Shown piece after piece: positions 6,118-38,484 of a stretch of DNA of 64,000 bases. Each line of letters opens with the position of its first letter. The stretch's first letter is position 1. The translations under genes and the position numbers were made by a program. The stretch comes from Candidatus Kaiserbacteria bacterium (GTDB taxonomy: Bacteria; Patescibacteriota; Minisyncoccia; Phycocordibacterales; UBA918), in contig CP064968.1 of NCBI GenBank assembly GCA_016699245.1, positions 89,686-153,685 of the forward strand. Reading direction: 5' to 3'. The notes beneath the pieces were generated by a model. The model did no database searches, was not told the origin of the DNA, and was given only the letters and a program-made list of their open reading frames with translations.

Positions 6118-6933
6118 CTAAAACCGCTTGGTCCAAAGACCGGTCTTTGGACCAAAGGAGAAGTAGCGGCCGATTTTGGTGCGGTGGATAGAATATGCGA
6201 GTCCGCCTGTACCCAATTGTGCTCCCACATACCCCGCTAACGAGCGCATATACGTACCCGAAGAGGCGACAATGGTGACGGTGATGAGGGGGAGTACTGA
6301 AGGTGCTTCAGTTGCAAACTGGTTCCATGACGCGCGCACGTCGTCGCGTCTAAAGTCTGCTCCGAGTGCCTTGCTTTTCTCAGTGACTTTGGGAATAGTT
6401 TCGATTTTTGTACGGACGTTCTCAAGTACCTCCTCGCGTGTTACCATGCGCACACTTTGGAGTGTGACATGGTGAATAATGGAGTGCTTCATAGGGATTT
6501 CAATCTCATGAAGGCGTTTTTCAAGTGCCCAGGTATGGAGTGGTTTGCCACGTACTGTTTTAGATGAGAAGTGCGGATAGGGAAGTGAAATAGGTCCACG
6601 AAGCCGTGAGAGTGTTCCAGAGATGTCCATTCGTGTAAGGGGCGGGAGGAAACATGGCTCGATGAGTCCGAGCACATCACCTGTGTCTGATCGTGCACCA
6701 AGGAGTATTTCCACGCAGTATTCTTTATCAAATGAGTGATATTCTTTTTGCTTTTTGCACTCATCACCAATGAGAATAAGTAGTTTTCCTGACGCCATAG
6801 GGTCGAGTCGACCGGCGTAGGCAAAGGGAACGCTTGCGGGAATCCTGAGGGATTCCCGCAAGCGTTCCGCTGCCACAAGTGGCGTCTCGCCGACAGCTTT
6901 TTCTACAGTAGCCCATATAGGGTAGGGATTCAT
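6118..6933 (-). CDS. truB: tRNA pseudouridine(55) synthase TruB
   Basis: AYAGRLDPMASGKLLILIGDECK matches the TruB catalytic motif (GxLDPxAxGxL) and downstream KEY...GARSDTGD resembles E. coli TruB. The 3' end overlaps a perfect 28-bp palindrome (6127-6154), so the exact C-terminus is uncertain. Confidence 0.65.
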   Translation of the reverse strand: MNPYPIWATVEKAVGETPLVAAERLRESLRIPASVPFAYAGRLDPMASGKLLILIGDECKKQKEYHSFDKEYCVEILLGARSDTGDVLGLIEPCFLPPLTRMDISGTLSRLRGPISLPYPHFSSKTVRGKPLHTWALEKRLHEIEIPMKHSIIHHVTLQSVRMVTREEVLENVRTKIETIPKVTEKSKALGADFRRDDVRASWNQFATEAPSVLPLITVTIVASSGTYMRSLAGYVGAQLGTGGLAYSIHRTKIGRYFSFGPKTGLWTKRF

Positions 6934-7010
6934 ACATACAAATATAGCACTTTTAAGAAGTATGAAAAAAGGCGATTCCGAAGAATCGCCTCATGTGGCA
7001 CAGAGAGCGC

Positions 7011-7310
7011 CTAGGTCGTATAGACCGGGAGTTGGAAGTAGAGCACCAAACGTTGGGCCGCTCTCTCGATTTCCTTTACGACGAGATTGAACTTCTTCAA
7101 GAGAGTATCAAAAAAGTTTTGGATTTCGTCGAGATGCACCGAATTGAGCATCGGGGTTCGCGAGTTTGGCTTTGCGATACCGATTGCCAACTTGAAATGT
7201 TCACCTTCTTGCCTGAACTGGTAATCAAGTTCTTGGGCATGCTTCAGCCAATTTGCGACGGCCCTCTTGATGCTCCGTACATGGTCACAGTTGCGTTTCT
7301 TTCTAGCCAT
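7011..7310 (-). CDS. hypothetical protein
   Basis: 99-aa ORF; the opposite strand carries an equally long overlapping ORF (6993..7361). Which strand is coding, if either, is unresolved. Confidence 0.2.
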   Translation of the reverse strand: MARKKRNCDHVRSIKRAVANWLKHAQELDYQFRQEGEHFKLAIGIAKPNSRTPMLNSVHLDEIQNFFDTLLKKFNLVVKEIERAAQRLVLYFQLPVYTT

Positions 7311-7485
7311 TGCTTGCTCCCATTTGTTGAAAAAACACGTTTCGAACCATTCAAAACGTAAGGAAGACTATAACACTACACAACAATAAACACAAGATGC
7401 ACAGGGTATATACCTGTGTAAGGTATACTTACTAGATTCGTCACTAGAAGTACACATTACTATTTTATTATTTCCTTGAAAATTC

Positions 7486-8676
7486 ATGATATCTCGATTC
7501 CTTGTTATTTCTTGTCTTATGACGCTCATTGGAGCGCCAGCCTTAAGTAGCGCCGCTACTTCTTCAAACGATTTAGAAGTATCGGGTTGGATGCCCTATT
7601 GGCGTGATTCAGAGGCCATTAAAGATGCAAAAAAGCATCTGGGAAGTATTGATGCGGTGTACCCGTTTGCCTTTACGGTGACTACCAAAGGCGAACTTCG
7701 TGACCAGGCCGGGCTCACTGACAAAGAATGGAAAGATTTCATCAAACTTGCACAGAAAAAGAAAGTGGAAGTAATTCCCACTGTTATGTGGAGTGATGGG
7801 GCGAGCATTCATACGGTCTTGAGTGCAACCACCACTCGTACTGCACATATCAAAGAAATTACTACGATGGTGAAGAAAGGAAAGTTTGATGGCGTGGATA
7901 TCGACTATGAGGGTAAGAAGTCAGAGACGATTAACTATTTTTCACTCTTTCTCAAGGAACTAAACGATGCACTTGGTGAGAAATCTCTCCTCTGCACTAT
8001 AGAAGCACGTACACCCCCTTCGTCTCTGTACAAAGAAGTACCTGCTGTCATAAATTACGCTAATGACTACAAAGCAATCGCGAAATACTGCGATCAGGTA
8101 GAAATCATGGCATATGATCAACAACGCGCCGATATTAAACTCAATGAAGAACGCTCCGGTAAGCCATACATGCCTGTCGCTGATGCAGAATGGGTAGAAA
8201 AAGTAATACAGCAAACACTTAAAGATATTCCAAAAGAAAAAATTGTTGTTGGTATTTCTTCATATGGGCATCACTATGCGGTGATGGTGGCTCCCAATTG
8301 GTATCGTGACTATTGGAAACTTGGTGCAATGAATGTACCAAGCCTTCTTGATATAGCAAAGGAAAACAAAGTGACTCCAACACGCAATGACGCAGGCGAA
8401 ATGAGTTTTACCTATTTACCAGAGTCTTCTAAAGTGAAATTCCCAAGTTCACTCAAAATTCCTAAAAACACACCAAAAGGGCAATTAGTTGCCGCGAAAG
8501 CACTAGCATATGCCAATAAGACAGGGAAGGAAGTGTATTTTCAAATGGGATGGTATTCAGATGTGGGCGCAATGGAGGATAAAATCAACCTCGCAAAAAA
8601 GTATGGTCTCAAGGGTGTTGCATTCTTTAAGATTGATGGAGAAGAGGATCAGAAGGTGTGGAAGATTTTGAAGTAG
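7486..8676 (+). CDS. secreted glycoside hydrolase family 18 (chitinase/YaaH-like)
   Basis: N-terminal signal peptide; DGVDIDYEG matches the GH18 catalytic DxxDxDxE motif. Confidence 0.75.
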   Translation: MISRFLVISCLMTLIGAPALSSAATSSNDLEVSGWMPYWRDSEAIKDAKKHLGSIDAVYPFAFTVTTKGELRDQAGLTDKEWKDFIKLAQKKKVEVIPTVMWSDGASIHTVLSATTTRTAHIKEITTMVKKGKFDGVDIDYEGKKSETINYFSLFLKELNDALGEKSLLCTIEARTPPSSLYKEVPAVINYANDYKAIAKYCDQVEIMAYDQQRADIKLNEERSGKPYMPVADAEWVEKVIQQTLKDIPKEKIVVGISSYGHHYAVMVAPNWYRDYWKLGAMNVPSLLDIAKENKVTPTRNDAGEMSFTYLPESSKVKFPSSLKIPKNTPKGQLVAAKALAYANKTGKEVYFQMGWYSDVGAMEDKINLAKKYGLKGVAFFKIDGEEDQKVWKILK

Positions 8677-17706: not shown

Positions 17707-17827
17707 TATATACGTATCAAGGCGTCACCTTGCTACGTATATATAATTGTTTATAAGAAAACCCTCGGTATGCACTATATGCCGAGGGATTTCTTGAGTT
17801 CTTGCTACTATTTATTAATGGATTGGT

Positions 17828-18295
17828 TTACCGAGTAACTTCAATGATTGGTGTAACGTTATCAATTTTTTCAGCATCGGGTGCAGATACAACGACTCTA
17901 TTATTTGTATCTGCTAAAACTTCATAACCAACAGCACCGGGGGCAACATCGTTGCAGTCTTTTATTGGAGCACCCTTTTTAGTTGATTTTGGATCAGTGG
18001 GTAAAGCAGAAAGGTATTTTGGTATCAAATTATCACACAGTGCATCAGTAATCTCCTCTGCACCGGCGTCGACATTACTTGGTAGAGTCCCTTTATTATC
18101 TAACGTGTACTGTCCAACTGCATTTAAGATAGCATTTATATTACTTGCCCTTTGTGTATTGTTTGCTTGTGCAAATTGGCGTGAAGGATTAATCGCCACG
18201 AGCACGGTTGCAGCCAAGACTGCAATGATACCAATAACGATAAGGACCTCAATAAGTGTGAAGCCCCCATGTCTACTTTTTGTACGTTTGTTCAT
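17828..18295 (-). CDS. type IV (major) pilin
   Basis: Class III signal peptide, ...SRHGG|FTLIEVLIVIGIIAVLAA, with Glu+5; 155 aa. Confidence 0.8.
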   Translation of the reverse strand: MNKRTKSRHGGFTLIEVLIVIGIIAVLAATVLVAINPSRQFAQANNTQRASNINAILNAVGQYTLDNKGTLPSNVDAGAEEITDALCDNLIPKYLSALPTDPKSTKKGAPIKDCNDVAPGAVGYEVLADTNNRVVVSAPDAEKIDNVTPIIEVTR

Positions 18296-18415: not shown

Positions 18416-18856
18416 TTACAGTTCAGTCCATGAGACGAAATCACCATTAGCATTATGTATCACGACACGGTACGTGGTTTGTGCGCTACCGCGATTGGCA
18501 GTTGCATCAACAATGCTTTCATTATTCTGGGGAGTGATGCTGAGAATGGTGCAGGATTCTTCACCCACAGGTATTATTCGATTTGAAATATCAGCCAAGG
18601 GATTATTGTACGTAGCGATGCGTGCTATATGAACACACGCCTCAGCAAGATGTTCGCTTGCACTTTTATTTTCCAGTTCGAGCATGAAGAAACGACTCGC
18701 AATACCAAATTGTGCAAGCGAAAGTGTTGTTACAAAAAACATTATCGACAAAATAGTGATAGACATGAGTGCAATGAAACCCTTTTGTGATGTGTAGTTT
18801 TTCATATTAGAAATGAAGGTAATAACGAATAGGTCCAACAGGAATATCACCCACAC
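18416..18856 (-). CDS. pilin-like (minor pilin/pseudopilin) protein
   Basis: N-terminal hydrophobic helix with KG|FIALMSITIL prepilin-like motif (lacks Glu+5). Confidence 0.4.
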   Translation of the reverse strand: MWVIFLLDLFVITFISNMKNYTSQKGFIALMSITILSIMFFVTTLSLAQFGIASRFFMLELENKSASEHLAEACVHIARIATYNNPLADISNRIIPVGEESCTILSITPQNNESIVDATANRGSAQTTYRVVIHNANGDFVSWTEL

Positions 18857-19331
18857 GAAAAGATACTTCGAGGGAACGTGGCGCGTCGCCCACAGGCGCG
18901 TGATGGGTGAAGGTTATGTTGTCTATAGTGACACGAGAAGCATTCAGTGGAAGAGGGTCCTTCCCATGGTCCATGAGCGTTACTTGACTACAAATGAGTG
19001 GTGGCGTACAGAAGGCATTTCCCGTATCGAGAGTGAATATGTACGCGACATGCCTGTCTTGCTCAAGTACAAGGGTGTCGCTTGTTTCTCCTTCGCCAGG
19101 CGTGGTGATGACACCCTGAGGGGTAGTGATGGTGTTGATCAGTGCATATCGGATTTTTGCAAGAATAAAGGAAGACTCATCTTCGTTTGTAATATTGCGG
19201 GAAAGCCGCTCGGCGCCGGTGAAGAATGGGTAAATACTGACGAAAATACCTGAGCATATAATTCCAAAAAGCCCCACATAGATTATGGTTTCAATGAGTG
19301 TGAAGCCGTTTTTATTATGGAGTACACACAT
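18807..19331 (-). CDS. minor pilin with prepilin N-terminal methylation motif
   Basis: NKNG|FTLIETIIYVGL motif; start chosen at the Met giving a 9-aa leader (ORF extends to 19412). Confidence 0.55.
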   Translation of the reverse strand: MCVLHNKNGFTLIETIIYVGLFGIICSGIFVSIYPFFTGAERLSRNITNEDESSFILAKIRYALINTITTPQGVITTPGEGETSDTLVLEQDRHVAYIFTLDTGNAFCTPPLICSQVTLMDHGKDPLPLNASRVTIDNITFTHHAPVGDAPRSLEVSFRVGDIPVGPIRYYLHF

Positions 19332-20913
19332 GTGGTTGGTCGCGTATAATGTCGAGCTTTGCATCTTTTTCATTTGCAACAAGAATATAACTTTGATAGT
19401 AGGCAAGCGCAACAGATTTTGAGTGACTCAAAGTATTGTCACAGGTGCTTATAGGGGAAATGATGGTGTCATTATCATTTTTTACATCCCATACATGAAA
19501 TGTTTGACTCGGGTCGGAGGTTATCAAAAACGCAACATCACTCTGCACGATAATATCAAGCACCTTAGTATTTGTTCCCAGACCAAGTTTTTTCCATTTT
19601 GTAGGTATGGGTATGTTTGAGTCACTGACATCAATTTTATATAAATCAGAATCACTGTTCGTGGTACGAGCACGCCCAAGATACACATATGAGCCAAGCG
19701 CATACACGCTTATACCATCAGCATTACCACTTGGATCGAATTTCATACCCGAGTCATCAGGAAGAACCATTGTCGCAGGTAAACGTATGTCAACTATCTG
19801 TAATTCTCCTGTGTTGTCTGAGGTGGCGAGATATGCGTGTGTCCCGCTCACCATAATATCGTTAATGTTGTGGTTGATGTTAAGGCTTTTAATATGTATA
19901 GGAGAAGTGCGAGCAGTTACGTCGTATACATGGAACTCATTATTCTGTGTCACAGCGCAACTTGAAGGACACGCAAGGTACTGCGTTCCCACATAGAGAC
20001 TATCGTCATAATAAAAAAGGCTTCGACCAACTGCAGTGTTTGTGTGGGGAATAGTGACGGCACCCACAAATGTTGGATATTCAGGATTTGATACATCGAG
20101 TATGTGAATCTGATTTGTTGTATCATTTTGAAGTGCATACGCCGTCTGATCAACCACAATAATTTTATTATACCCATATGGGGTAAAATCGACCTCAGCG
20201 ACAACTGTAGGATATTCTAAATTGGTGATGTCAATAACCATGAGGTCAGGCTCATTTGTGGTATCAGATTTCCCACTTATAAACACGTACGAAGTACCAT
20301 TAAGTATCGCAACATCCATATCGGTAGTGGTACCAGTAAAAGAACTTGGTGTAACGCTCCACCCAGTAACTTCTGGATTATCCCAATCGCCAGGAGGAAA
20401 TGGATCACAGGCGCCGCGGCCGTAGGACGCGGCAATATTGACATTACTGAGCGCAGTCCCGAATGAAATTTGGTGTTGACGCTCACGAAGTGACGTCCAG
20501 GTTGTTTTTCCCAGCACTTCCTTTACGCAGGGAGAAATATCGGTAACCTCGGGTGAAGCGTATGTGTAGATATCCACGGAGTCCGATGTATCAGTAGTGG
20601 GGATGAGTGCGCTCCAGTTTTCGGTGATGCTTCCCATGAGCGCGCCAAATTTATTGGAACTACTTGCAAGACCCTGACTGTCGAGGAGTGCATCAAGCGC
20701 TGCAGCTTGGCCACTTTCAAGTGATATTTGGCGGGCGAGTGTGGGGTCACTAAAGACAACCATTATTGCTGCAGAGAGAAAAATTATGCCGACACTAAAT
20801 GCAATAAGTATTTCGATAGTGGAAAATCCGGAAGTGAAGGTGTGTGGGGACGAGGTACGGCCTCGTCCCCACACACCTTTCTCAAATAACTTTGCGATGT
20901 GGAAAAATATCAT
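19315..20913 (-). CDS. large pilin-like protein: prepilin N-terminus fused to LVIVD-repeat beta-propeller
   Basis: N-terminal TSG|FSTIEILIAFSVGIIF, followed by repeated x-[LIV]-x-[IV]-x-D-[IV]-[ST]-N/D-P motifs (LMVIDITNLEYP, IHILDVSNPEYP, FHVYDVTARTSP, LQIVDIRLP, LYKIDVSDSNIP, FHVWDVKND) typical of LVIVD repeats. Confidence 0.6.
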   Translation of the reverse strand: MIFFHIAKLFEKGVWGRGRTSSPHTFTSGFSTIEILIAFSVGIIFLSAAIMVVFSDPTLARQISLESGQAAALDALLDSQGLASSSNKFGALMGSITENWSALIPTTDTSDSVDIYTYASPEVTDISPCVKEVLGKTTWTSLRERQHQISFGTALSNVNIAASYGRGACDPFPPGDWDNPEVTGWSVTPSSFTGTTTDMDVAILNGTSYVFISGKSDTTNEPDLMVIDITNLEYPTVVAEVDFTPYGYNKIIVVDQTAYALQNDTTNQIHILDVSNPEYPTFVGAVTIPHTNTAVGRSLFYYDDSLYVGTQYLACPSSCAVTQNNEFHVYDVTARTSPIHIKSLNINHNINDIMVSGTHAYLATSDNTGELQIVDIRLPATMVLPDDSGMKFDPSGNADGISVYALGSYVYLGRARTTNSDSDLYKIDVSDSNIPIPTKWKKLGLGTNTKVLDIIVQSDVAFLITSDPSQTFHVWDVKNDNDTIISPISTCDNTLSHSKSVALAYYQSYILVANEKDAKLDIIRDQPHVCTP

Positions 20914-20919
20914 AGTGTC

Positions 20920-21381
20920 TTACCAATCAATTTGACCCACATCGTTAATGGTGATTTGTTGCTCCTTACCATTGCCTGAAATGGTAAGTATTCCTGCGCC
21001 TTCAGATACACTTCCGGAAAGCCGTTCAAAGATAATATTTTCATGAGCAGCGCTGTGTGTGATGGTGATGTGTTCGCTCGTGAAAGGAGTAATACGATTA
21101 CTCGCTGTCCCTTCGATAAAGATCTCTCCTTCAAAAAGTACATACCGATGATTTGTGGTATCGACATGAACGCCGTAAGATACATTACCTGCATTTGCGA
21201 GAGCCTTCGCCCGCGCGCCAGAGAGAAGAAGAGATACAAAAAGATCGCGTTCCTGGAGAACACTCGCGCGTGCAATAGAGTCCATGTTCATGACTATGCC
21301 AAAGGAAAGGATGATACCGGTGAGCCCTACAACCATGAGGAGTTCGATGTATGTAAATCCTCTTTGCAGAATTTCTCTCAT
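20920..21381 (-). CDS. pseudopilin (GspH/FimT-like minor pilin)
   Basis: QRG|FTYIELLMVVGLTGIILSF prepilin motif; start at Met-23 of ORF 20920..21447. Confidence 0.6.
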   Translation of the reverse strand: MREILQRGFTYIELLMVVGLTGIILSFGIVMNMDSIARASVLQERDLFVSLLLSGARAKALANAGNVSYGVHVDTTNHRYVLFEGEIFIEGTASNRITPFTSEHITITHSAAHENIIFERLSGSVSEGAGILTISGNGKEQQITINDVGQIDW

Positions 21382-21391
21382 ACTATTCGTG

Positions 21392-22552
21392 TTAATTACT
21401 GAGGTGCTTTGTGACTTCGTAGATAGGAGTAATGACTGACACCGCAATGAGCCCTACCAAAATACCCATAGTCATAAGAAGTATAGGCTCAATTGAATTA
21501 GAAAGACTTTTTGTACTTTCATCTACTTCAGTCTCATAGAGACTCGACAGATAACTAAGCGTAACAGAAAGACTCCCTGTCGTTTCGCCAATAAGAAGCA
21601 TGTGGGGAAGCATATCAGGGAAGATGGAGAGATAGTGCATCATCCTGGTAGAAATTTTTTCACCTTTTTCAATATGCTCTGCAATATCGAGATATGCATT
21701 TTTGTATATGGTGTTTTTGGTAACACGGGCAGTGATGCGCATTGCTTCCACGACACCCACACCAGCAGAAATGTTGAGCCCTACTGTACGGCAGAAATTG
21801 GCGCAGTTGTACGCGCGAGCTATGTTGCCGATGATGGGAAGTCGTAAAAGAATCCAGTCAGAGATAGTGCGAAGCCGGGGGAACACGTTCCGTGAAATAA
21901 TGAAGACGAGTACGGCACCAATCAAGCCAAAAAAAGTTACTAGCCCCCATGTTTCTAGATATACGCTTATCGCAAGGAGGATACGTGTGGTAAGAGGGAG
22001 GGCGATATTGAGAGATATAAAGATAGGCATAATCTTCGGGAAAATGAACATCACCAACAGACTCGTTACGCCGAGTGTTGCAATGGTGATGAAAACTGGG
22101 TAAACGAGTGCGCTCTGCACCTTACGCTTTAATGCTTGTTTTTTAGCGAGTTCATCAGCGAGGTATATAAGGTTTTCTGAGAGAATGCCATTGTTTTCGC
22201 CAATGCGAATTATGTTAATGGTGAATTCACCAAATAGATGTTCATACCTTGCAAGACTTGTGGAAAGAAATTGTCCCGCAGAAACGTCCTGAATGATTGT
22301 ATAAAAAATAATTCGCTTTCGTTTTGATTTGGTTTGCGCATGAATCATGGTCATACTTTCGAGTATGGAGACACCTGCTTTCACCAAGAATGAAAGTCGC
22401 TTTGCAAAGAGGACTTGTTCTTGAATTGAAAAATGAAGAAAAAGAGTTGAAGCAGTAGGGAAGGAGGTTGTGTGTGAAGTGATTGTATTATTCACTTGGT
22501 CACGAGATGGTCCACGAAATCGTGCAACAAGATTTTGCAGTTTTGAGTGCAT
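21392..22552 (-). CDS. pilC: type IV pilus assembly platform protein PilC (GspF family)
   Basis: 386 aa with two GspF repeats and 3 TM segments. Confidence 0.8.
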   Translation of the reverse strand: MHSKLQNLVARFRGPSRDQVNNTITSHTTSFPTASTLFLHFSIQEQVLFAKRLSFLVKAGVSILESMTMIHAQTKSKRKRIIFYTIIQDVSAGQFLSTSLARYEHLFGEFTINIIRIGENNGILSENLIYLADELAKKQALKRKVQSALVYPVFITIATLGVTSLLVMFIFPKIMPIFISLNIALPLTTRILLAISVYLETWGLVTFFGLIGAVLVFIISRNVFPRLRTISDWILLRLPIIGNIARAYNCANFCRTVGLNISAGVGVVEAMRITARVTKNTIYKNAYLDIAEHIEKGEKISTRMMHYLSIFPDMLPHMLLIGETTGSLSVTLSYLSSLYETEVDESTKSLSNSIEPILLMTMGILVGLIAVSVITPIYEVTKHLSN

Positions 22553-22648: not shown

Positions 22649-22692
22649 GAAAATCCCCACGGCGTGCGGAGCACGCCGTGGGGATTTTCTTG
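22649..22692. terminator. hairpin terminator downstream of the SGNH hydrolase gene
   Basis: aaatccccacggcgtgc-ggag-cacgccgtggggatttt (17-bp stem) with flanking T-run on the minus strand. Confidence 0.45.
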
Positions 22693-22702
22693 ATTTCCAA
22701 TA

Positions 22703-24487
22703 TTATCTGTTCAAGAGGGCTCGCAGGTATGGCTCTACGCGGTCGGCGATGAGGTCGTGGCCGTTGTCGCGGGGGTGGACGAGGTCGGTTGTTCGGAATG
22801 GATTTCCGAGGATAGCTTCCATCACATTGGGGGTGTACGCTGCACCATTGTCCCAAGCGAGATTTCGGTACTGTGAGTCATAGTTAATCAAGAAGTAGTT
22901 TTTGTATCCGAGAATAAGCACTGCGGAGCCATCATCCGTGATACGCTCCACAATCGTGTCGAGATTTGAAAAGATTGTTGCGGTATTCACTTTTTGCAAG
23001 AAGTCGTTTCCTCCGAGGAATACAATAACGAGTGAAGGATTCTTTGAAAGCACATCAGCATCGAGACGGGCGAGTGCTTCAGTGGTGGTATCTCCATTTA
23101 CTCCCGCATTAATGATAGGCACGCTCAGTCTTTCACTGAGGAGAGAAACATAGTCATTGCCAATCGTCGCATCGCGTCCAAAGGTGATACTGTCACCGAG
23201 TGCAATGACTGGTCCATTTCGAAGTGGATAGTTTTCAATTCGTTCGAGGTTTACATACACCACACTAATCTCCGCACTTTTTACAATTACTGGATATCCC
23301 GTAGTAGAGATTCTGTACCCAAAGTAGTATGTGCCTGCCTTTGGTATTCTTATTGTTTTAGTTCCTGAGGGTGAGGAGCCTACCGTCACAGAGGAAACCT
23401 GTCTATCGGTCTCAGCATCATAGAGAATAATGTCGTCACCAGATTGGTGAGCATACGCCGGTGCAGCGTAGGTTATCGTAATCGGCTGGTCAATTTCTGC
23501 TGTAGTTATATTTGTCGAGAGGGTATAGAGAGATGCATCGGGAAGTTGTACGATGACTGGTCCTGCTGTTTTTACCACGGGCCTCCCTGTGATATTTATG
23601 CGGTATCCTATAGTGTAGTTACCGGGTGTGCGGAGGATGAATGTCTTCGTCCCAGTGTTCGTTTTGCCTATTGATTGAGAAGAAACCACACGGTTTGTAA
23701 CGGTATCAAACACGATGATACTGTCAGAAGACTGATAGGTAGTTGCTGGACTCCTGTAGGTTACGATAAGTGGCTCACCCATGCGTAGGGTTGTTGCATT
23801 GGTGGTAAGTGTATATTGTGATGCATCGGGGAGGCTCACGGTCACTGGCCCCACGGTTTTGATGATGGGTCTGCCGGTAATTCCCAGACGGTATCCTACG
23901 GTGTATATGCCGGGATTACGTACTACAAGGGTCTTTGTGCCAGAAGAGATTTTTCCGAGTGACCCAGAAGTCACCACTCTGTTTGTTGCCGTATCAATAA
24001 GCACAATACTGTCCGAAGATTGGTGCGCGCCCGTAGGTGCTGCGTAGGTTATTACGAGGGATTCACCACTCTGGAGCGATGTCTTATTGACCGAGAGTGT
24101 GTAGAGGGATGCACTCGGGACGTTGACCGTAACGCTTTCTGAAGTAGCAAGTATGGGGTATTTTGAAATACTTGCACGATACTTAAAAACATAGGTACCC
24201 GGCTTAAAGGTGGAAAATGTTTTGGTTCCACTTTGCGCATCACCGACACGCTGTGTTGCCACGATGTAGTTAGTATCCGCGTTCACCATGAGAATACTGT
24301 CGCTCGATCTATATGAGGTTGGAGCAACACTGTATGAGACAGTAATAGACTGACCAATAGACACCGAGGTAGGGGAGGCGGTAAGGGTTACATCTGCTGC
24401 ATGTGCGGACAGGCTAAACCCAAATAAAATGACTAAAAATATAGCGATACTAAAAGCGCATTTTGGGAGCGCATAAAGAAAATTCAT
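22703..24487 (-). CDS. secreted SGNH/GDSL hydrolase with four N-terminal ~100-aa tandem Ig-like repeats
   Basis: Signal peptide; four tandem repeats (each ...Y/A-x-PT/ATxYxSSDSIxLxDTxTNRVVxSxSxGKxxxGTKT...); C-terminal VIALGDSITFG (GDS block I), GVNGDTT (block II), FLGGNDF (block III) and DLVHPRDNGH (block V DxxH). Confidence 0.7.
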   Translation of the reverse strand: MNFLYALPKCAFSIAIFLVILFGFSLSAHAADVTLTASPTSVSIGQSITVSYSVAPTSYRSSDSILMVNADTNYIVATQRVGDAQSGTKTFSTFKPGTYVFKYRASISKYPILATSESVTVNVPSASLYTLSVNKTSLQSGESLVITYAAPTGAHQSSDSIVLIDTATNRVVTSGSLGKISSGTKTLVVRNPGIYTVGYRLGITGRPIIKTVGPVTVSLPDASQYTLTTNATTLRMGEPLIVTYRSPATTYQSSDSIIVFDTVTNRVVSSQSIGKTNTGTKTFILRTPGNYTIGYRINITGRPVVKTAGPVIVQLPDASLYTLSTNITTAEIDQPITITYAAPAYAHQSGDDIILYDAETDRQVSSVTVGSSPSGTKTIRIPKAGTYYFGYRISTTGYPVIVKSAEISVVYVNLERIENYPLRNGPVIALGDSITFGRDATIGNDYVSLLSERLSVPIINAGVNGDTTTEALARLDADVLSKNPSLVIVFLGGNDFLQKVNTATIFSNLDTIVERITDDGSAVLILGYKNYFLINYDSQYRNLAWDNGAAYTPNVMEAILGNPFRTTDLVHPRDNGHDLIADRVEPYLRALLNR

Positions 24488-24544: not shown

Positions 24545-25900
24545 TTACTCACTTATGGTACGAAGAATTTCCGCGAGGGTGGTTTTGCCTGCGACTGCTT
24601 TACGTAATCCATCTTCAAACATGGTAGTCATGCCTTCCTCAATCGCAATATTTTTAAGCACGACAGAAGATTTGCGTTCAAGAATTGCTTCGCGCACACG
24701 AGGGGAAGTAACAAGTACTTCGTATATTCCGATACGCCCCGAAAATCCAGTACGATCACACGCTTCACAGCCTTTACCTTTATAAAAAGTATTCGGAATG
24801 TTTTTAAGATTTTGTTTGAGGCGGTCGGGGAGTATGCGAAGGAGATTATGGCGCTCTGCCTCAGTGAGTGCGTGTGCTTCGGTACAATGTGGACATATTT
24901 TGCGAACAAGACGCTGACCGATGGCGATATTGATTGTTGATGCCACAAGGTATGCGTCGATTCCCATATCAAGAAGACGGGGAAGTGTGGTGGCTGCGTC
25001 ATTCGTATGAAGTGTGGAGAGAAGAAGGTGACCGGTGAGTGCAGTGTTGATTGCAATGCCTGCCGTCTCTGTATCACGTATTTCACCCACCATAATGATG
25101 TTGGGGTCCTGGCGCAAAATTGAGCGAAGTCCTTGTGCAAACGTGAGATTGGTACGAGTATTAATTTGAATTTGTGTGATACCCGGAATTGCGTACTCGA
25201 TGGGGTCTTCAATAGTGATAATCGATACCTCTTTTTTATTGAGCATTTTAATAAGCGTATAGAGGGATGTAGTTTTTCCGGAGCCTGTGGGGCCTGTGGC
25301 GAGAATCATTCCGTGGGGTTGCGCTATGGCGCGTTCAATTTTTTCTTGATCTTGAGGACTAAAGCCAAGCATCTCAAGTGTAAAATTGGATGAGTGATCG
25401 GCAAGGAGACGCAAGACGGCATTTTCCCCATAGTAGGTGGGAGTGATAGAAACACGAATATCGATAGGCTTGGTGTCGTTGGTGCCGGTTTGCATACGAA
25501 AGCGCCCGTCTTGCGCTGCCTGGTGCTCATCAGTGCGGAGCCCAGAAAGCACTTTGATGCGTGAAATGACTTCAGAGAGAATATTTTTTGGGAACGTACA
25601 CTTATCTTGTAATACACCATCAATGCGTAAACGCACGACCGCATCTTGTTCGGTGGGGTCAATGTGTATATCGGATGCACGAAGTGCGTATGCTTCTTCA
25701 ATACACGTTTGTACAAACTCAATAATAGGAATTGGTCCTGGGCGTGAAAGTATTTCCCGCACACTACCAGTTGTCGTTGGTGTTTGGCCCTGGTCTTTTA
25801 TGTCGATACTTTTCTCACCTTGAGACTGGTTCATGGTTTTGTGATTATGTGCTTCAGTGTGGGCCTTGTCTAGAGAGTCGGCTGGACAAGTGTTGGACAC
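24545..25900 (-). CDS. pilB: type IV pilus assembly ATPase PilB (GspE family)
   Basis: GPTGSGKTT Walker A, GEIRD Walker B/Asp box, His box, and tetracysteine motif CPHC...CEAC. Confidence 0.85.
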   Translation of the reverse strand: MSNTCPADSLDKAHTEAHNHKTMNQSQGEKSIDIKDQGQTPTTTGSVREILSRPGPIPIIEFVQTCIEEAYALRASDIHIDPTEQDAVVRLRIDGVLQDKCTFPKNILSEVISRIKVLSGLRTDEHQAAQDGRFRMQTGTNDTKPIDIRVSITPTYYGENAVLRLLADHSSNFTLEMLGFSPQDQEKIERAIAQPHGMILATGPTGSGKTTSLYTLIKMLNKKEVSIITIEDPIEYAIPGITQIQINTRTNLTFAQGLRSILRQDPNIIMVGEIRDTETAGIAINTALTGHLLLSTLHTNDAATTLPRLLDMGIDAYLVASTINIAIGQRLVRKICPHCTEAHALTEAERHNLLRILPDRLKQNLKNIPNTFYKGKGCEACDRTGFSGRIGIYEVLVTSPRVREAILERKSSVVLKNIAIEEGMTTMFEDGLRKAVAGKTTLAEILRTISE

Positions 25901-25967
25901 ATATAATATCCGTGGCAGAATATGGTGCAGTTTTTTGAGTATATTTCATATTCCTGAGGAGGAAAAG

Positions 25968-26345
25968 ATGGGAGATTCTGAGAGAAGTACTGTGTCATCC
26001 AGTCAAGAAGTTCTGGTAGCGCTGGCGCAGAAGGCTTGTGCGCTTGTTGATGCAGACATTAAGAAGCCTGAAGACGTCAAGATATGCTTTGGTGCAAGTT
26101 TTGAATTCGGGGTTATTACTTGCATCTGGAGCAAATTGTATCGCGATGGTAGTCAAACTGATGTGTTCTCGTATTTCTACCACCCGGAGTGCTGCTCAGG
26201 CCTCAAAAACGAAGGGGGTATACCTAGGTTGTGTGTGCAGACAGTGATGAGTTCATCTCCTCCGTATGTCACTACACCAAACGAATGGTACGAGATTCAA
26301 GGAATCTCTACCGAAAACCCAGTAGCAAAACGCATCGAAGTATGA
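25968..26345 (+). CDS. hypothetical protein
   Basis: GAGGAGG RBS 7 nt upstream of ATG at 25968; 125 aa, Cys-containing; no family recognised. Confidence 0.3.
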   Translation: MGDSERSTVSSSQEVLVALAQKACALVDADIKKPEDVKICFGASFEFGVITCIWSKLYRDGSQTDVFSYFYHPECCSGLKNEGGIPRLCVQTVMSSSPPYVTTPNEWYEIQGISTENPVAKRIEV

Positions 26346-26561: not shown

Positions 26562-28136
26562 GTGGCTGAAAGAAGAAATGGCACTCGCTTAAAGACTGCT
26601 ACCGGTCGTAAATCAATAAGACAAGAACCACCTCGTGAACTTCCCATCGTGCGCGCAATTCGCAAATTTGCCAATCGTGCGTGCGACGTATCAAGTATTG
26701 GTGAAGGCATGAGAAAGATTTTTGTGCTCGATACCAATGTGCTCATGCATGACCCCACGTGTATCTTCCGCTTTGAAGAACACGACGTCTTCATTCCGTT
26801 GATGACGCTTGATGAACTCGATAACCACAAGAAGGGAAAAGAGGAAATAAACCGAAATGTGCGTCAAGTTTTACGCGCAATCAAGGAACTTGCGGATGTA
26901 AAGGGATGCAAAATTACTGAAGGCATCGATCTTACTGGTCCATCAGAAGGACTTGCGACGGGCCGTCTCTTTTTGCAGAGCAAAAATATGGAAGGCGCAC
27001 TTCCTACATCCCTTCCAATGACCAAGGTTGATCATCAAATTCTCTCGGTGATCACCCACATGCAAGACAGTGAAGTGTATAAGGGTTGCATGATTATCTT
27101 GGTCACCAAAGATATCAATATGTATATCAAGGCGAAAGCGCTTGGCTACATGGTTGAAGACTATCTGAATGACAAGGTAATTGAAGATTCAGATTTGCTC
27201 TACTCGGGCGCTCTGGAACTTCCTGATGATTTTTGGTCAAATCATTCAGACGGTATGGTGGCCAAGAAAGATAGGCAGAGTGGGATATCAACATATCGTG
27301 TTACCGGTCCACTCTGTTCTACTTTTTACGTCAATCAGTTGCTTTGGTCGGAGTCACTCGATCTCGAATGTATCGTTCGTGAAGTGTCAGGGGATCATGC
27401 AGTGCTCCAGACGCTCGTGAATTACCGGAATCAAAAACACTCTGTCTTCGGTATTCACCCGAGAAATCGTGAGCAGAACTTCGCGTGTAATTTGCTCCTT
27501 GATCCGGACATTGATTTTGTATCTTTGCTTGGGCAGGCAGGTACCGGTAAAACCCTTCTCGCTATCGCCGCCGGTCTTCACCAGACGATTGATGGAAATA
27601 GGTTTGGTGACATCATCATGACCCGAGTCACCGTTTCAGTTGGCGAGGACATCGGCTTTCTTCCGGGTACCGAGGAAGAAAAGATGGGGGCATGGATGGG
27701 TGCACTCGAAGATAATCTTGAAGTGCTCGTATCAGTGGATGGGAATCATTCCAAGGATGACGGTGCATACGGTATCAATCATATTCCTTCGGACATAGCA
27801 CGAAAGGAGACACATCAACTGATAAGGAATCGTATCAAAGTGAAGTCACTCAACTTCATGCGTGGCCGTACATTTTTCAGGAGATACCTTATCATCGACG
27901 AGGCTCAAAATCTTACACCGAAGCAGATGAAAACTCTCATCACGCGAGCCGGTCCCGGCACCAAGGTGATTTGTCTTGGCAACATAGGGCAGATTGATTC
28001 ACCCTACCTTACGGAAGGGTCGTCGGGTCTTACCTATGTCGTTGATCGGTTCAAAGGTCAAAAACATGTGGGACACATCATCTTGCAGCGTGGTGAGCGT
28101 TCACGCCTTGCCGATTTGGCCAATGAATCACTCTGA
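26562..28136 (+). CDS. PhoH2-type protein (N-terminal PIN domain + PhoH ATPase, YlaK-like)
   Basis: GTG start 7 nt after AGGAGG; FVLDTNVLMHDP PIN motif; GQAGTGKT Walker A; IIDEAQN Walker B. Confidence 0.75.
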   Translation: MAERRNGTRLKTATGRKSIRQEPPRELPIVRAIRKFANRACDVSSIGEGMRKIFVLDTNVLMHDPTCIFRFEEHDVFIPLMTLDELDNHKKGKEEINRNVRQVLRAIKELADVKGCKITEGIDLTGPSEGLATGRLFLQSKNMEGALPTSLPMTKVDHQILSVITHMQDSEVYKGCMIILVTKDINMYIKAKALGYMVEDYLNDKVIEDSDLLYSGALELPDDFWSNHSDGMVAKKDRQSGISTYRVTGPLCSTFYVNQLLWSESLDLECIVREVSGDHAVLQTLVNYRNQKHSVFGIHPRNREQNFACNLLLDPDIDFVSLLGQAGTGKTLLAIAAGLHQTIDGNRFGDIIMTRVTVSVGEDIGFLPGTEEEKMGAWMGALEDNLEVLVSVDGNHSKDDGAYGINHIPSDIARKETHQLIRNRIKVKSLNFMRGRTFFRRYLIIDEAQNLTPKQMKTLITRAGPGTKVICLGNIGQIDSPYLTEGSSGLTYVVDRFKGQKHVGHIILQRGERSRLADLANESL

Positions 28137-29432: not shown

Positions 29433-30866
29433 ATGAGGGATATAAAATACAGAGATCACGCGGTTGCACCTATGTTATGGTCACGATACGCTACCTATTT
29501 TTTTGTGATGCTCGCTATTCTTCTTATCCCAGTCTTATTAGCATTCAAAGTAGAAGCAGACGTTGCTATTTTTCATTCAGACACGTATCTCGAGCAGGGC
29601 GTTGAGATGACGCATGAGTCAGGAACTGAAAAATATATACAGTATGAACACTTTTGGAGTGATTTTGAAGGAGTTGTTCCCGAAGATGCTCTTGTAAACA
29701 ATATTACACTCCATCTTACGTGGTCACCGGTGACGCGCGTGGTCTCTGATGGGGCAGTGGAAGATTCTCCAAAAGAGGTGACTCCAGAAAGTACTCATGA
29801 AGAGGTGATGAATGAACTACCTACGCCTGAAGAGCAATTAGGGGAATCATTGCATGAGGAACTCCCTGTAGAGCCAGACGTTGCTATTCCTGAAGAAACA
29901 GAACCTTCTTCAGAGGCGGTTATTCCTGTAGACAGTATTGATGAGCCTGAAGAAGTAATTATAGAAGAATCCACCTCTGATTCGCCTCCCGAAGCGAGTG
30001 ATAATTCATCGGAGACTGTGGGATTTGAGGAGGTTTCATGGAATCATTTGTATTCATTAGTTAATGCGCAGATTGAAGAGGAAGTTGCAACAAATACAAT
30101 AGTAATAACTGAAGGAAGTGAACCTGAAGTGATAATTACTGAGTCTATTTCGACCACTTCAGGATTTGTCTCGGAAGATATTTTGATTGAAAATCAGGCT
30201 GAGAAGTTCTTTGAAGTGCGGTATACGATTGATGGGGTGACATGGCAAGAGCTTGGGAATGTTGGATTTGATGATGCACAGGATACAGTATTTGATCTTT
30301 CACCTATAGGTATTGATGCAATACCAAACCTACGCGTTGCTATTCGATACACCGTTCGTGATGGAGAAACGACGAAGATTATTTTTGATTCAATGCGACT
30401 CGAAGTCGGATATGGAGCACCGGTCATAGAGGAAGTCGCTCCGCCCACCCTACAAAATGATAGCGAACCAAATTTTGACGTTGGTGCAATTAAGGCTGAT
30501 GTCCAATCGGAAAATATTCGAGCGGTTGTACTCGAAAGAGGAGGAGTCTTTGAGTTTTGGTACTCCGTCACTGACCCGCAATCAGGTGCAGTTTTTTGGA
30601 ATAAAATTCTTGGAGGAGGGGCTGTTGATGAGAATGCACCGATCGGTATTAAAAAACGGACGATATTTTGGCTTGATCGCAATCAACAAACACTCTTTGG
30701 GTTTGCTGTTGATGAAGAATCAATATTTGCAACTCCATTTCAAGATGACCAGGAAAGTAAAGTCTTTCTCCTTCCATTTACAGATGAAAATGGCAAGCCG
30801 TGGGAAGCACTATTTAATTCCTCAGAGAACGTACTTGAGTTCAGTAAAGTAAAAAGTGAATCATGA
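29433..30866 (+). CDS. membrane-anchored surface protein with E/P/S-rich acidic linker
   Basis: N-terminal TM (FFVMLAILLIPVLLAF), ~120-aa acidic low-complexity region, then a ~250-aa globular region; stop overlaps the start of the giant gene (ATGA). Confidence 0.5.
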   Translation: MRDIKYRDHAVAPMLWSRYATYFFVMLAILLIPVLLAFKVEADVAIFHSDTYLEQGVEMTHESGTEKYIQYEHFWSDFEGVVPEDALVNNITLHLTWSPVTRVVSDGAVEDSPKEVTPESTHEEVMNELPTPEEQLGESLHEELPVEPDVAIPEETEPSSEAVIPVDSIDEPEEVIIEESTSDSPPEASDNSSETVGFEEVSWNHLYSLVNAQIEEEVATNTIVITEGSEPEVIITESISTTSGFVSEDILIENQAEKFFEVRYTIDGVTWQELGNVGFDDAQDTVFDLSPIGIDAIPNLRVAIRYTVRDGETTKIIFDSMRLEVGYGAPVIEEVAPPTLQNDSEPNFDVGAIKADVQSENIRAVVLERGGVFEFWYSVTDPQSGAVFWNKILGGGAVDENAPIGIKKRTIFWLDRNQQTLFGFAVDEESIFATPFQDDQESKVFLLPFTDENGKPWEALFNSSENVLEFSKVKSES

Positions 30867-33800
30867 TGCGAGAGCGGCTCTTTCCATACATACGAGCGTT
30901 GTCGAAAAGACACATACTCATGGTGGGTGTTAGTTTTTTTATTATGGGCGTGTGTATTCTTGGCACACGACACCTTCTCGTTGGTGAAAAAGTTGGGCAG
31001 TTTATAAGGACGAATCGGGCGCTTGCACACTACCAATTCACCCCCACGCATGGCACCATCGTCACCGGCGCATCCACCACCATCACCTCAGCTACCGGAA
31101 ATACTACTGAAGGAGTCAATGTGGGTTCATGGAAGGGAACACTCTCCGACGATAACTATCACTGGGTCGTCGCTGGGGCAGGAGCAAGCGGACTTGATGT
31201 CAACCTCACCATGGGTGGGGTACAGTTAAACGGCGCCAACAAACTCATTGTCCAAACAGAATTTGACCTCGATGCGACCATTCTTGCAACTGAGGTACAG
31301 ATTTGTGACTGGACGTCATCAACTGATGTGGACGATGCCGCAGACAGTGAATGTACGGGTGGCGGGTGGCGTACCCTCAACACAAAAAATGAACTGCAAG
31401 GCCCGCAACGCCTCGTACACAGCACCGGTATCCCATTTCAGTGGCACCTTTATAACGGGTATTGGTCTACCGGCACGACCGGGGGAGCAGCGGTTGATAC
31501 GCCACTCACGAACTTCCTCAACGGTGCCGATCAGATGAAATTCCGATACTTCTCTGCCTCATCGAGCGTGTCCGAAATCGCCATTGACTACCTTCGTGTG
31601 TACGCGGTCGTCGACCCGGTCTATCACGCGGGAGGATTTGTACAGGAATCAGGCGGCACGCCGAGTGGCCACTATGGCAACACCTTTAGCGTCGGCCATT
31701 CCGTGACCGCACAATTCGCGGTGACTACCGGTGATAATATCTACCTCGGTGTCCCCGGTACGGTTGCGACTACATCAAACTTCTACCTCACCTTCAAGAA
31801 CGTGAAGACATACACCGGCATGAATACCATTCTCGTGAACGCCGAGACACTCTGTTCTCTCGCAACGGCTGGTCTCCAGTACCGATTCAAGATTCGCAAT
31901 TTTAATACCAGTATCTGGGAAGATATTTCACAACCACTCGACTGTTCTACCAACGGGTTTTTCAACAACTTTGCCTTAAACAACATCGTCATTGATGACT
32001 ACATCAATGCGTCAAACGAAATATGGGTGGGTGTCTCTGCGCTCTCAAACTCGACGACACAAATTCGCATCGACTCCATCTACCTCATGCTCGGCACTAC
32101 CAACACCGACACGAACAGTTGTGAAATATCATTTGGATCAAACACTGCAGGACGCATTGCCTCAAACCCCTCTGCGCCAGGAGCGGATCGTATCCAAGCA
32201 CTCACCTCAGATGGTACGTATATGTACGCTTCGGGATACGACAGTGCGGGAATCGATAATGAGTGGCGCATAGAGAAGCGCAATCTTTCCGACGGAGACC
32301 TCGTCTCGGCATTTGGTGTTGGTGGCGCAACCTCAACCGATCCCTCAGTTGGTGCCGACCAAATTTTCGCCATCGCCACAACCTCGGGTGCGATATTTGT
32401 TGCGGGGTATGACACAGCAGCGGGCACGGGGCAGTGGCGTATCGAGAAGCGCGATAGTACCGATGGTACGCTCGAAACCGCGTTTGATACGGATGGCATT
32501 ATCACCACAAATCCTTCAGCAAGCCTCGATCACATCAATGCGATTGCCACTGATGCGAGTTACCTCTACGTGGCAGGAGTTGAAAATACTACGAGTGGTA
32601 CGTGGCGCATTCATAAGTATGACATCACCACCGGTGCACTCGTTACCGCATTTGATGGAGATGGTATCGCGACGAGCACGCTTGCTGCCTCGGGCGACGA
32701 ACGACCGCAGGCGCTCAAGGTGGATGGCGACTATCTGTACATCGGGGGATACGACAACCTCTCCGGGAACATCGAGTGGCGTCTCGAGAAGCGCAACAAG
32801 ACCACCGGTGCACTTTGTGCGGGTGGAGGGGAGTGTGCCGCAGGTGCATTTGATACCGATGGTGTGGTGCAGACAAACCCCTCTTCGGGTATTGATGCAA
32901 TACGTGCACTCGCCATTACCGACGCACACGTGTTCCTTGCAGGATACGACTCATCAACCACAAACAACCAGTGGCGCATCGAAAAGCGCGATATCGCGAC
33001 CGGCGCACTCGATACTGCATTCGATACCGATGGTATTATGCAATATAACCCAAGTACCGGTGCTGACTGGATAACCGCACTCGCACTCGATGACACCACA
33101 CTCTACGCGATTGGAAATGTGAGCAACGGTGCGTGGCGTGTTGATGCTCGCGATATCACGACCGGTGCCTCGACGACGTTCTCCGGTAACGGTACGACAC
33201 TCTCTGAAGATGGTGGTGATGACCAGCCACTTGCCGTCGTACAGGAGGGTGGGTATCTCTATGTTGCAGGATACGGCACTGCTCCAGGAGACAACCAATG
33301 GCTCATCGAAAAACTTGCGACGAACACAGGGCTGCGGAGCACCGACAGCTTTGGTGCAAATGATTGCACCGGAACACGAAACATTGATATCACCGGCGGG
33401 AACAGAGATGCATGGACAATCCAGACACAAGATGAATCAACGAATCACAGTACTCCATACTATGCACTCGATACCGACGGTGATGCAGCAATTGAGGAAG
33501 CGGGATCAGCAACCATCGGGTTTTCGGTTGCGGTACCGGGAAACAGTGCTGTCACCGGTATCTACTGGGCAGGACGCGCAATGAACGGTGCAGGAGCGGG
33601 TACGGTGCGCCTTGCCGTGAAGGACTACTCAGGATTCACCGGCCTTACAGGAGGCAGAAGTCTCGTCGGTTCCTCACCAGGAATTGCTATGACATACACT
33701 GATCCCTTGATAGTTGGTGGTATTACCTCAGGAGGTATGGCAGGGTACCTCACAAACCCTGAGGATTATATTGATACCTTAAATAATGAGATGTCACTCA

Positions 33801-34270
33801 GTCTCGTGACCAACTCGGATGGTGCGAGTACCACGAATGCCGTGAACGTATGGGACTTTGCGATGGTGAGTTTTAGTTGGGTGGAGGATCCTGATCATGA
33901 AAGCGCCACGTATCAATTCACCCCCACGCATGGCACCATCGTCACCGGCGCATCCACCACCATCACCTCAGCTACCGGAAATACTACTGAAGGAGTCAAT
34001 GTGGGTTCATGGAAGGGAACACTCTCCGACGATAACTATCACTGGGTCGTCGCTGGGGCAGGAGCAAGCGGACTTGATGTCAACCTCACCATGGGTGGGG
34101 TACAGTTAAACGGCGCCAACAAACTCATTGTCCAAACAGAATTTGACCTCGATGCGACCATTCTTGCAACTGAGGTACAGATTTGTGACTGGACGTCATC
34201 AACTGATGTGGACGATGCCGCAGACAGTGAATGTACGGGTGGCGGGTGGCGTACCCTCAACACAAAATGA
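30863..34270 (+). CDS. giant surface beta-propeller protein, part 1 (N-terminal TM + repeat unit 1 + start of unit 2; truncated by TGA created by an A4 tract)
   Basis: N-terminal TM; ~60-aa repeats of form AGYD...WRIEKRDxxDGTLxTAFDTDGI resembling delta-60-type beta-propeller repeats; terminates at 34268 where copy 2 has A4 instead of A6. Confidence 0.6.
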   Translation: MMRERLFPYIRALSKRHILMVGVSFFIMGVCILGTRHLLVGEKVGQFIRTNRALAHYQFTPTHGTIVTGASTTITSATGNTTEGVNVGSWKGTLSDDNYHWVVAGAGASGLDVNLTMGGVQLNGANKLIVQTEFDLDATILATEVQICDWTSSTDVDDAADSECTGGGWRTLNTKNELQGPQRLVHSTGIPFQWHLYNGYWSTGTTGGAAVDTPLTNFLNGADQMKFRYFSASSSVSEIAIDYLRVYAVVDPVYHAGGFVQESGGTPSGHYGNTFSVGHSVTAQFAVTTGDNIYLGVPGTVATTSNFYLTFKNVKTYTGMNTILVNAETLCSLATAGLQYRFKIRNFNTSIWEDISQPLDCSTNGFFNNFALNNIVIDDYINASNEIWVGVSALSNSTTQIRIDSIYLMLGTTNTDTNSCEISFGSNTAGRIASNPSAPGADRIQALTSDGTYMYASGYDSAGIDNEWRIEKRNLSDGDLVSAFGVGGATSTDPSVGADQIFAIATTSGAIFVAGYDTAAGTGQWRIEKRDSTDGTLETAFDTDGIITTNPSASLDHINAIATDASYLYVAGVENTTSGTWRIHKYDITTGALVTAFDGDGIATSTLAASGDERPQALKVDGDYLYIGGYDNLSGNIEWRLEKRNKTTGALCAGGGECAAGAFDTDGVVQTNPSSGIDAIRALAITDAHVFLAGYDSSTTNNQWRIEKRDIATGALDTAFDTDGIMQYNPSTGADWITALALDDTTLYAIGNVSNGAWRVDARDITTGASTTFSGNGTTLSEDGGDDQPLAVVQEGGYLYVAGYGTAPGDNQWLIEKLATNTGLRSTDSFGANDCTGTRNIDITGGNRDAWTIQTQDESTNHSTPYYALDTDGDAAIEEAGSATIGFSVAVPGNSAVTGIYWAGRAMNGAGAGTVRLAVKDYSGFTGLTGGRSLVGSSPGIAMTYTDPLIVGGITSGGMAGYLTNPEDYIDTLNNEMSLSLVTNSDGASTTNAVNVWDFAMVSFSWVEDPDHESATYQFTPTHGTIVTGASTTITSATGNTTEGVNVGSWKGTLSDDNYHWVVAGAGASGLDVNLTMGGVQLNGANKLIVQTEFDLDATILATEVQICDWTSSTDVDDAADSECTGGGWRTLNTK

Positions 34271-38479: not shown

Positions 38480-38484
38480 TTTTA

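Follow-up and report, generated by a model that had tools for sequence, protein, structure and literature searches.

An LVIVD-propeller minor pilin and candidate pilus adhesin in a conserved type IV pilus cassette of a Kaiserbacteria genome

The window analysed here is a 64-kb stretch (64,000 nucleotides) of the genome of a Candidatus Kaiserbacteria bacterium (contig CP064968.1). Within it lies a type IV pilus (T4P) gene cassette, and this report concerns one gene of that cassette, at 19315-20913, whose product we call the LVIVD pilin. An earlier note, made from the sequence alone, had described it as a pilin-like protein fused to a β-propeller of LVIVD repeats and as a possible pilus-tip adhesin. 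The open reading frame (ORF) is real, lies on the minus strand and encodes the 532-aa product that the note had given. This product is 100% identical to the NCBI entry 'hypothetical protein IPH92_00455 [Candidatus Kaiserbacteria bacterium]'. The gene and its parts are as follows.

19315..20913, minus: LVIVD-propeller minor pilin gene, whole; 532 aa plus stop
20830..20913, minus: leader peptide, aa 1-28, up to the class III signal
20380..20829, minus: pilin module, aa 29-178; hydrophobic α1N (GFSTIEILIAF...), long α1, four-stranded antiparallel sheet and linker
19318..20379, minus: LVIVD β-propeller, aa 179-532; seven blades, with six clear LVIVD motifs and one degenerate

A pilin module joined to a predicted propeller

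The class III prepilin signal proposed in the earlier note, G|FSTIEILIAF, was found in the product. The sequence S-G|F-S-T-I-E at residues 28-34 supplies Gly-1, Phe+1 and Glu+5, and it is followed by the hydrophobic stretch ILIAFSVGIIFLSAAIMVVF. In an alignment of 73 full-length LVIVD pilin homologues, Glu34 was invariant and Gly29 was conserved in 98%, and G-F-S-T-I-E was invariant among the 20 closest homologues. An automatic scan detected the signal motif in 21 of 24 related loci, the other three being mis-picks of the scan. The leader is similar in length to that of the closest homologue, P0002 (81% identity). As expected of a pilin, ~20 hydrophobic residues (α1N) are followed by an α/β head.

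To the C-terminal side, a regular expression for the LVIVD core returned six copies, at residues 224, 269, 327, 371, 424 and 472 with a spacing of 44-58 aa. When the protein was shuffled 2000 times, the same expression gave 0.05 copies on average and never more than 2. The claim of at least six repeats was therefore borne out, and a degenerate seventh copy, KLDIIRD (~residue 519), coincided with the seventh blade of the structural model described below. Pfam LVIVD (PF08309) matched with E = 5e-11 and 42.2 bits, compared to a gathering cutoff of 20.2, and there were further weak Pfam matches to Beta_propel and WD40-like domains. AlphaFold2, given the family alignment, returned a model with a mean pLDDT of 87.3 and a pTM of 0.82. 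The N-terminal part was modelled as a helix (residues 31-53), a low-confidence break (58-65) and a long helix (66-98), and the pilin head as a four-stranded antiparallel sheet (116-156). Residues 180-525 formed 28 strands arranged as seven four-stranded blades, mostly with pLDDT above 90. Both tests by which the earlier note could have been refuted, the search for an LVIVD HMM match and the structure prediction, thus came out in its favour, and the LVIVD repeats are confidently predicted to fold as a seven-bladed β-propeller on a genuine pilin head.

The pilin head is small and appears closest to the heads of GspI/PilV-type minor pilins, and its gene comes after a GspH-like gene. Head and propeller are connected by a short, Pro-rich and conserved linker, G-x-C-D-P-x-P-P-G-x-W-D-N-P-E. 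In the 73-sequence alignment, Cys129 and Cys169 (conserved in 90% and 93%) lie on either side of the linker and the end of the head, and Cys491 and Cys530 (82% and 81%) are located in the last blade; each pair may form a disulfide. The best-conserved part of the propeller was blade 4 (aa 339-375, NINHNINDI...ATSDNTGEL), at 44%. The propeller is acidic, with a pI of 4.46 here and a family median of 4.58 (range 4.05-6.92). A sequence-profile search of the PDB with the whole family gave a weak N-terminal pilin match only (geopilin, E 0.0055), and the same search with the pilin module alone returned nothing useful. Collectively, these results make it very probable that the LVIVD pilin is a bona fide pilin carrying a propeller, that is, a bimodular or 'modular' minor pilin.

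The size of the family was estimated by searching 1.84 billion representatives of clusters at 50% identity with a profile built from the pilin module only. Of 791 proteins matched at E <= 1e-3, 510 reached E <= 1e-10, and almost all of the best 150 matches were 480-560 aa long. Among 59 sampled relatives, 47 had an LVIVD match and two had a match to the Pfam pilin model N_methyl; in the first search, a precomputed N_methyl match was present in 3 of 113 homologues. The family is large and constant in architecture, and it is mostly invisible to domain-based pilin censuses. Since Pfam N_methyl misses ~97% of the family, censuses of modular pilins undercount it, and the LVIVD pilin itself is annotated as a hypothetical protein because the pilin HMM misses it.

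The pilus gene cassette, its relatives and its surroundings

The LVIVD pilin gene is embedded in a series of pilus genes on the minus strand, which run in the order pilB, an SGNH-hydrolase gene, pilC, the GspH-like pilin, the LVIVD pilin, the third pilin, the 146-aa pilin and the major pilin.

24545..25900, minus: assembly ATPase PilB/GspE; Pfam T2SSE 2.7e-122, also NCBIfam
21392..22552, minus: platform protein PilC/GspF; Pfam T2SSF 5.5e-48, also NCBIfam
20920..21447, minus: GspH/ComGD-like minor pilin (G|FTYIE); NCBIfam ComGD 2.5e-5, GspH 1e-4
18807..19412, minus: third minor pilin (G|FTLIE); Pfam N_methyl 22.5 bits, Glu+5 in 24/24
18416..18856, minus: fourth minor pilin, without Glu+5 (G|FIALM), 146 aa; fixed cassette position
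17828..18295, minus: major pilin (G|FTLIEVLIVIGIIAVLAA), GspG/ComGC-like; Pfam N_methyl 32.7 bits, NCBIfam GspG 4.9e-9

The earlier note had counted four other minor pilins between pilC and the major pilin. Only three are present (20920-21447, 18807-19412 and 18416-18856), and the fourth other pilin gene is the major pilin itself. The true start of the GspH-like pilin is probably the ATG at 21381, and the probable starts of the third and fourth pilins are the ATGs at 19331 and 18805, the former giving an overlap of ~14 nt with the end of the LVIVD gene. The profile of the third pilin weakly matched pilin N-termini in the PDB, and the fourth had no Pfam match and no PDB sequence match. Neighbouring cassette genes abut or overlap, both in the window and in three related loci fetched by exact protein look-up, suggesting translational coupling. 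The operon may be terminated by an 11-bp-stem hairpin at 17762-17788, ~40 nt past the stop codon of the major pilin. The ATPase and the platform protein scored higher on GspE/PilB and GspF/PilC models than on ComGA/ComGB. The T4P genes form a compact cassette, apparently with no retraction ATPase close by.

The gene between pilB and pilC (22703-24487, minus) encodes a 594-aa secreted protein that combines roughly four diverged repeats of ~90 aa with an SGNH/GDSL hydrolase domain at its C-terminus (Pfam 1.9e-19). A sigma70-like promoter site (24524-24496, 11/12) lies upstream of it and a perfect 19-bp hairpin (22649-22689) directly past its stop, so it looks like a transcription unit of its own. 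TRF detected no DNA-level repeats in this repeat-protein gene. An orthologue is located upstream of pilB in one related locus (L009), and the other cassettes are without the gene.

As the earlier note had suggested, the cassette was compared with those of related genomes. Three loci were obtained by exact protein look-up and 22 from GTDB species representatives. They carried the labels Kaiserbacteria, Paceibacterota, Parcubacteria, 'Patescibacteria group', 'uncultured Saccharibacteria' or plain 'bacterium', a Patescibacteria-only range that is biased because the scan of GTDB representatives, built on 20 close sequences, depended on the motif GFSTIE[IL]LI. The order pilB, pilC, H-like pilin, LVIVD pilin, pilin, pilin, major pilin, established with phmmer, was kept in 24/24 gene-carrying loci as far as the contigs extend; the contig of L025 stops within the LVIVD pilin gene. 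In each related locus that reached far enough, the gene directly before that of the LVIVD pilin was the GspH-like one. In the one apparent exception, L018, the slot is occupied by a 671-aa LVIVD pilin with an insert of ~170 aa. Given this fixed order in all gene-carrying loci, the LVIVD pilin is a core minor pilin of a conserved cassette, and it probably belongs to the complex that primes the filament or forms its tip.

Four of the five cassette pilins (H-like, LVIVD, third and major) carry Glu+5. In contrast, the fourth pilin (G|F-I/V-A-L-x) had Glu+5 in 0/24 orthologues. A missing Glu+5 is the hallmark of the filament-capping GspK/PilX/ComGG-type subunit in the tip complexes of type II secretion systems and T4P. 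By analogy, the fourth pilin is a candidate GspK/PilX/ComGG-like cap subunit, with the GspJ and GspK assignments in this cassette resting on gene order and Glu5 status only.

Further module grafting is visible within the cassette. The Glu5-less cap pilin of L017 (9089-11272, plus) is 727 aa long and has a weak vWA match (E 7e-4). The LVIVD pilin of L014 (6971-9409, plus) is 812 aa long with extra C-terminal sequence (weak Big_3 match), and the insert of the L018 protein (6608-8623, plus) is close to blade 1.

The rest of the window holds several features outside the cassette. A 524-aa fusion of a PIN domain and a PhoH-like ATPase (26562-28136, plus) is encoded on the strand opposite to pilB and ~660 bp upstream of it; a short unannotated ORF (25857-26345) separates the two. 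Three consecutive large ORFs of 477, 1135 and 1014 aa (29433-37172, plus) without a Pfam match at E <= 1e-3 are followed by small ORFs and by an Fn3-domain protein (38320-39462), and this region may be a surface-protein cluster. On the minus strand, a 2,3-bisphosphoglycerate-independent phosphoglycerate mutase is split into two overlapping ORFs (57568-58323 and 58301-59086), one holding iPGM_N and the first part of the Metalloenzyme domain and the other the rest of Metalloenzyme, which reflects either a frameshift or a sequencing error. Scans of the 64 kb for tRNA genes and Rfam families gave no matches.

Proposed role and the alternatives

We give a probability of roughly 0.6 to a reading in which three things hold jointly, namely cleavage by a prepilin peptidase, assembly into a tip complex with the other minor pilins, and binding of an extracellular ligand by the propeller. 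A prepilin peptidase encoded elsewhere would remove the leader after Gly-1. The LVIVD pilin and the three other minor pilins would form a priming complex on the PilC platform and later the filament tip, analogous to GspH-I-J-K, FimU-PilVWX and ComGD-G. The Glu5-less subunit would be uppermost and the LVIVD pilin directly beneath it, with its α1N buried in the filament core. The acidic propeller of ~350 aa, stabilised by the conserved Cys491-Cys530 pair, would jut from the tip and bind its ligand. This ligand would most likely be a glycan or protein on the surface of a host or partner cell, since cultivated Patescibacteria are episymbionts that use T4P for host contact. The tip position is suggested by conserved synteny with three other minor pilins and by published analogues. 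Of the pilus-tip adhesin that the earlier note had envisaged, the pilin-propeller architecture stands on the LVIVD HMM and the AlphaFold2 model, and the role is proposed from synteny and from two analogues, the pilin PilB of Streptococcus sanguinis and PilX2, discussed further below. Taken by itself, the placement of the LVIVD pilin as a tip-located adhesin is one that we lean towards slightly.

Several observations weigh against this reading. Neither Pfam N_methyl (PF07963) nor TIGR02532 matched the LVIVD pilin at E <= 1 in searches of Pfam and NCBIfam; the protein does contain the motif, and the miss is due to the low sensitivity of a short and weak HMM. No prepilin peptidase (A24), PilT or PilMNO was found among the ORFs scanned in the window. 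To our knowledge, LVIVD repeats have no established function. The LVIVD pilin is probably not the top-most subunit because it retains Glu+5; the 146-aa pilin, which never has it, is by analogy with GspK/PilX a better candidate for the very top position. The conservation of blade 4 could mark an interface between proteins instead of a binding site specific to a host. Finally, the propeller is neither hypervariable nor unusually conserved, at 28% compared to 24-33% for the heads of other minor pilins. This comparison used mean pairwise identity over the same 18 genomes with complete cassettes, and the α1N identity of the GspH-like pilin was excluded as a trimming artefact.

PilB: mean identity 61%
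PilC: mean identity 47%
Major-pilin head: mean identity 42%
Fourth pilin head: mean identity 31%
LVIVD propeller: mean identity 28%
LVIVD pilin head: mean identity 27%
Third pilin head: mean identity 24%

The major pilin was the most conserved pilin of the cassette (α1N 84%, head 42%).

Some of these observations would suit a structural or priming role, in which the propeller is a built-in equivalent of the C-terminal propeller of PilY1, docked on the minor pilins and without a specific external ligand. It could work as a plug or stopper, priming assembly, giving the tip stability or keeping the filament from being fully retracted through the wall or S-layer. The gene is in every cassette examined and in a fixed position, the propeller varies no more than the pilin heads do, and the most conserved residues gather in blade 4 (NxNHNxNDI, ATSDNTGEL), as expected of an inter-subunit interface. 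The PilY1 propeller has also been described as a 'carrier' module that touches minor pilins (PMC8179133). However, the LVIVD protein is already a pilin and needs no docking domain for carriage, and loss of the propeller pilin PilX2 of TM7x lowered host binding while filament extrusion continued (PMC11623550). The variants with added domains (812 aa in L014 and 671 aa in L018) look, moreover, like elaboration of an effector module. We regard the structural role as unlikely.

A role as DNA receptor, with the propeller capturing extracellular DNA on a Com-like DNA-uptake pseudopilus, is a good deal less probable. A structural match to YncE and the Com-like layout point in this direction, but the YncE score was no better than that of ~800 other propellers, and comEA, comEC and dprA were not found among the window ORFs scanned. 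The role is down-weighted chiefly because the propeller is acidic throughout the family and because the ATPase and platform are nearer GspE/PilB and GspF/PilC than ComGA/ComGB.

We give slightly less credence again to a pilus-borne enzyme, a catalytic propeller (hydrolase or lyase) delivered to the host envelope. Foldseek placed a Sphingobium phosphotriesterase (5hrm) at rank 3, with a weak profile match (E 0.42), and virginiamycin B lyase was among the structural matches; Glu326, Glu370 and His348 are strongly conserved, and modular pilins with peptidase modules have been catalogued (PMC8179133). However, the enzyme matches were generic fold matches at 8-11% identity, and no catalytic-family HMM matched in Pfam or NCBIfam. 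The conserved Glu residues precede the LVIVD strand and are probably structural, since they repeat the position of Asp/Gln in other blades. Least probable of all is a non-filament surface protein held by an uncleaved N-terminal helix that mimics a pilin signal, which would fit the N_methyl miss and the lack of a prepilin peptidase gene among the scanned ORFs but not the invariant Glu+5 and nearly invariant Gly-1 of the 73 sequences, the pilin fold of the head, the overlap with the next pilin gene or the obligatory place between pilin genes, downstream of pilB and pilC, in 24/24 gene-carrying loci.

The reading as a ligand-binding tip pilin can also be taken further. The LVIVD pilin could be the fixed ancestral tip module of a Paceibacteria-specific seven-gene cassette, combining GspI-like and PilY1-like roles in one polypeptide and serving as the primary determinant of host recognition. 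We hold this tentatively and consider it rather doubtful; if true, the protein could be used as bait, or its gene as a marker, for finding unknown hosts.

Comparison with known modular pilins and pilus propellers

Patescibacteria make up a large share of environmental bacteria, and T4P are among their most conserved surface machines. In cultivated Saccharibacteria, T4P are needed for motility and contribute to host attachment. Paceibacteria is the largest class of Patescibacteria and is very largely uncultured, and we know of no cultivated representative of Paceibacteria or Kaiserbacteria; the sources retrieved name no host. Because it offers a conserved pilus-borne propeller in hundreds of sequence clusters, the LVIVD pilin is a concrete candidate for a host-contacting molecule and a useful marker of the cassette.

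Modular pilins have been argued to be tip-exposed, and for one of them, PilB of S. sanguinis, a function as adhesin was demonstrated (Raynaud et al. 2021, PMC8179133). The LVIVD pilin has the parts of a modular pilin as defined there, with a pilin head, the CDPxPPGxWDNPE linker and a propeller. The module of PilB (PDB 7b7p) is a vWA domain with a MIDAS, whereas that of the LVIVD pilin is a predicted seven-bladed LVIVD propeller. Adhesion has been demonstrated for PilB, whereas the LVIVD pilin is known here from the sequence of an uncultured Patescibacterium. Dataset S1 of the same study lists ~30 proteins that combine IPR012902 (N-methyl) with IPR013211 (LVIVD, 1-13 copies), exactly the domain architecture of the LVIVD pilin, compared to 510 clusters at 50% identity here. 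The study mentions an 860-aa Candidatus Falkowbacteria pilin with 12 copies and calls LVIVD a 'motif of unknown function' (PMC8179133). It counts pilin-LVIVD proteins only; the structure prediction, synteny and family analysis come from the present work, and our literature search turned up no analysis of LVIVD pilins or of their structure or synteny. The repeats were first reported from cell-surface proteins of Methanosarcina acetivorans and of some other genomes, both archaeal and bacterial (PMC2447325).

A second analogue, the minor pilin PilX2 of Nanosynbacter lyticus TM7x, bears a heptabladed RCC1 propeller and is needed for efficient host binding but not for filament extrusion (Grossman et al., PMC11623550). 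Its deletion approximately halved host binding while filaments remained, and the authors propose a tip adhesin (PMC11623550). PilX2 belongs to T4P-2 of Saccharibacteria and is built of RCC1 repeats, whereas the LVIVD pilin is built of LVIVD repeats with no RCC1 among the Pfam matches listed. PilX2 is without a predicted PilD signal, in contrast to the canonical class III signal of the LVIVD pilin, and the two differ in lineage (Saccharibacteria compared to Kaiserbacteria/Paceibacteria) and in locus layout.

The earlier note had also supposed that the fold differs from that of PilY1. This does not hold, as the conserved C-terminal domain of PilY1 is itself a β-propeller (PMC8179133). The likeness to PilY1/PilC (IPR008707/PF05567) would be that a seven-bladed propeller accompanies four core minor pilins at the tip and has a presumed role in adhesion. 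Membership of the LVIVD pilin in the PilY1/PilC family was considered and rejected, given the lack of a PF05567 match and the class III signal. PilY1 belongs to a separate propeller family and is a non-pilin with a Sec signal, whereas the propeller of the LVIVD pilin is covalently fused to a pilin. On the pilin side, the closest known counterparts are GspI/EpsI/XcpV and the GspH-I-J-K pseudopilus tip complex (PDB 2ret, 3ci0, 5bw0).

The grafting of effector domains onto pilins, the pilin-LVIVD architecture and a propeller-bearing minor pilin for host binding in Saccharibacteria were already known. The incremental additions of this work are the seven-gene cassette and its conservation, the head that resembles GspI, the partner pilin without Glu5, and the finding that N_methyl-based surveys undercount the family. 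Since the pilin-plus-LVIVD architecture has been published, the LVIVD pilin is an addition to the known modular type IV pilins.

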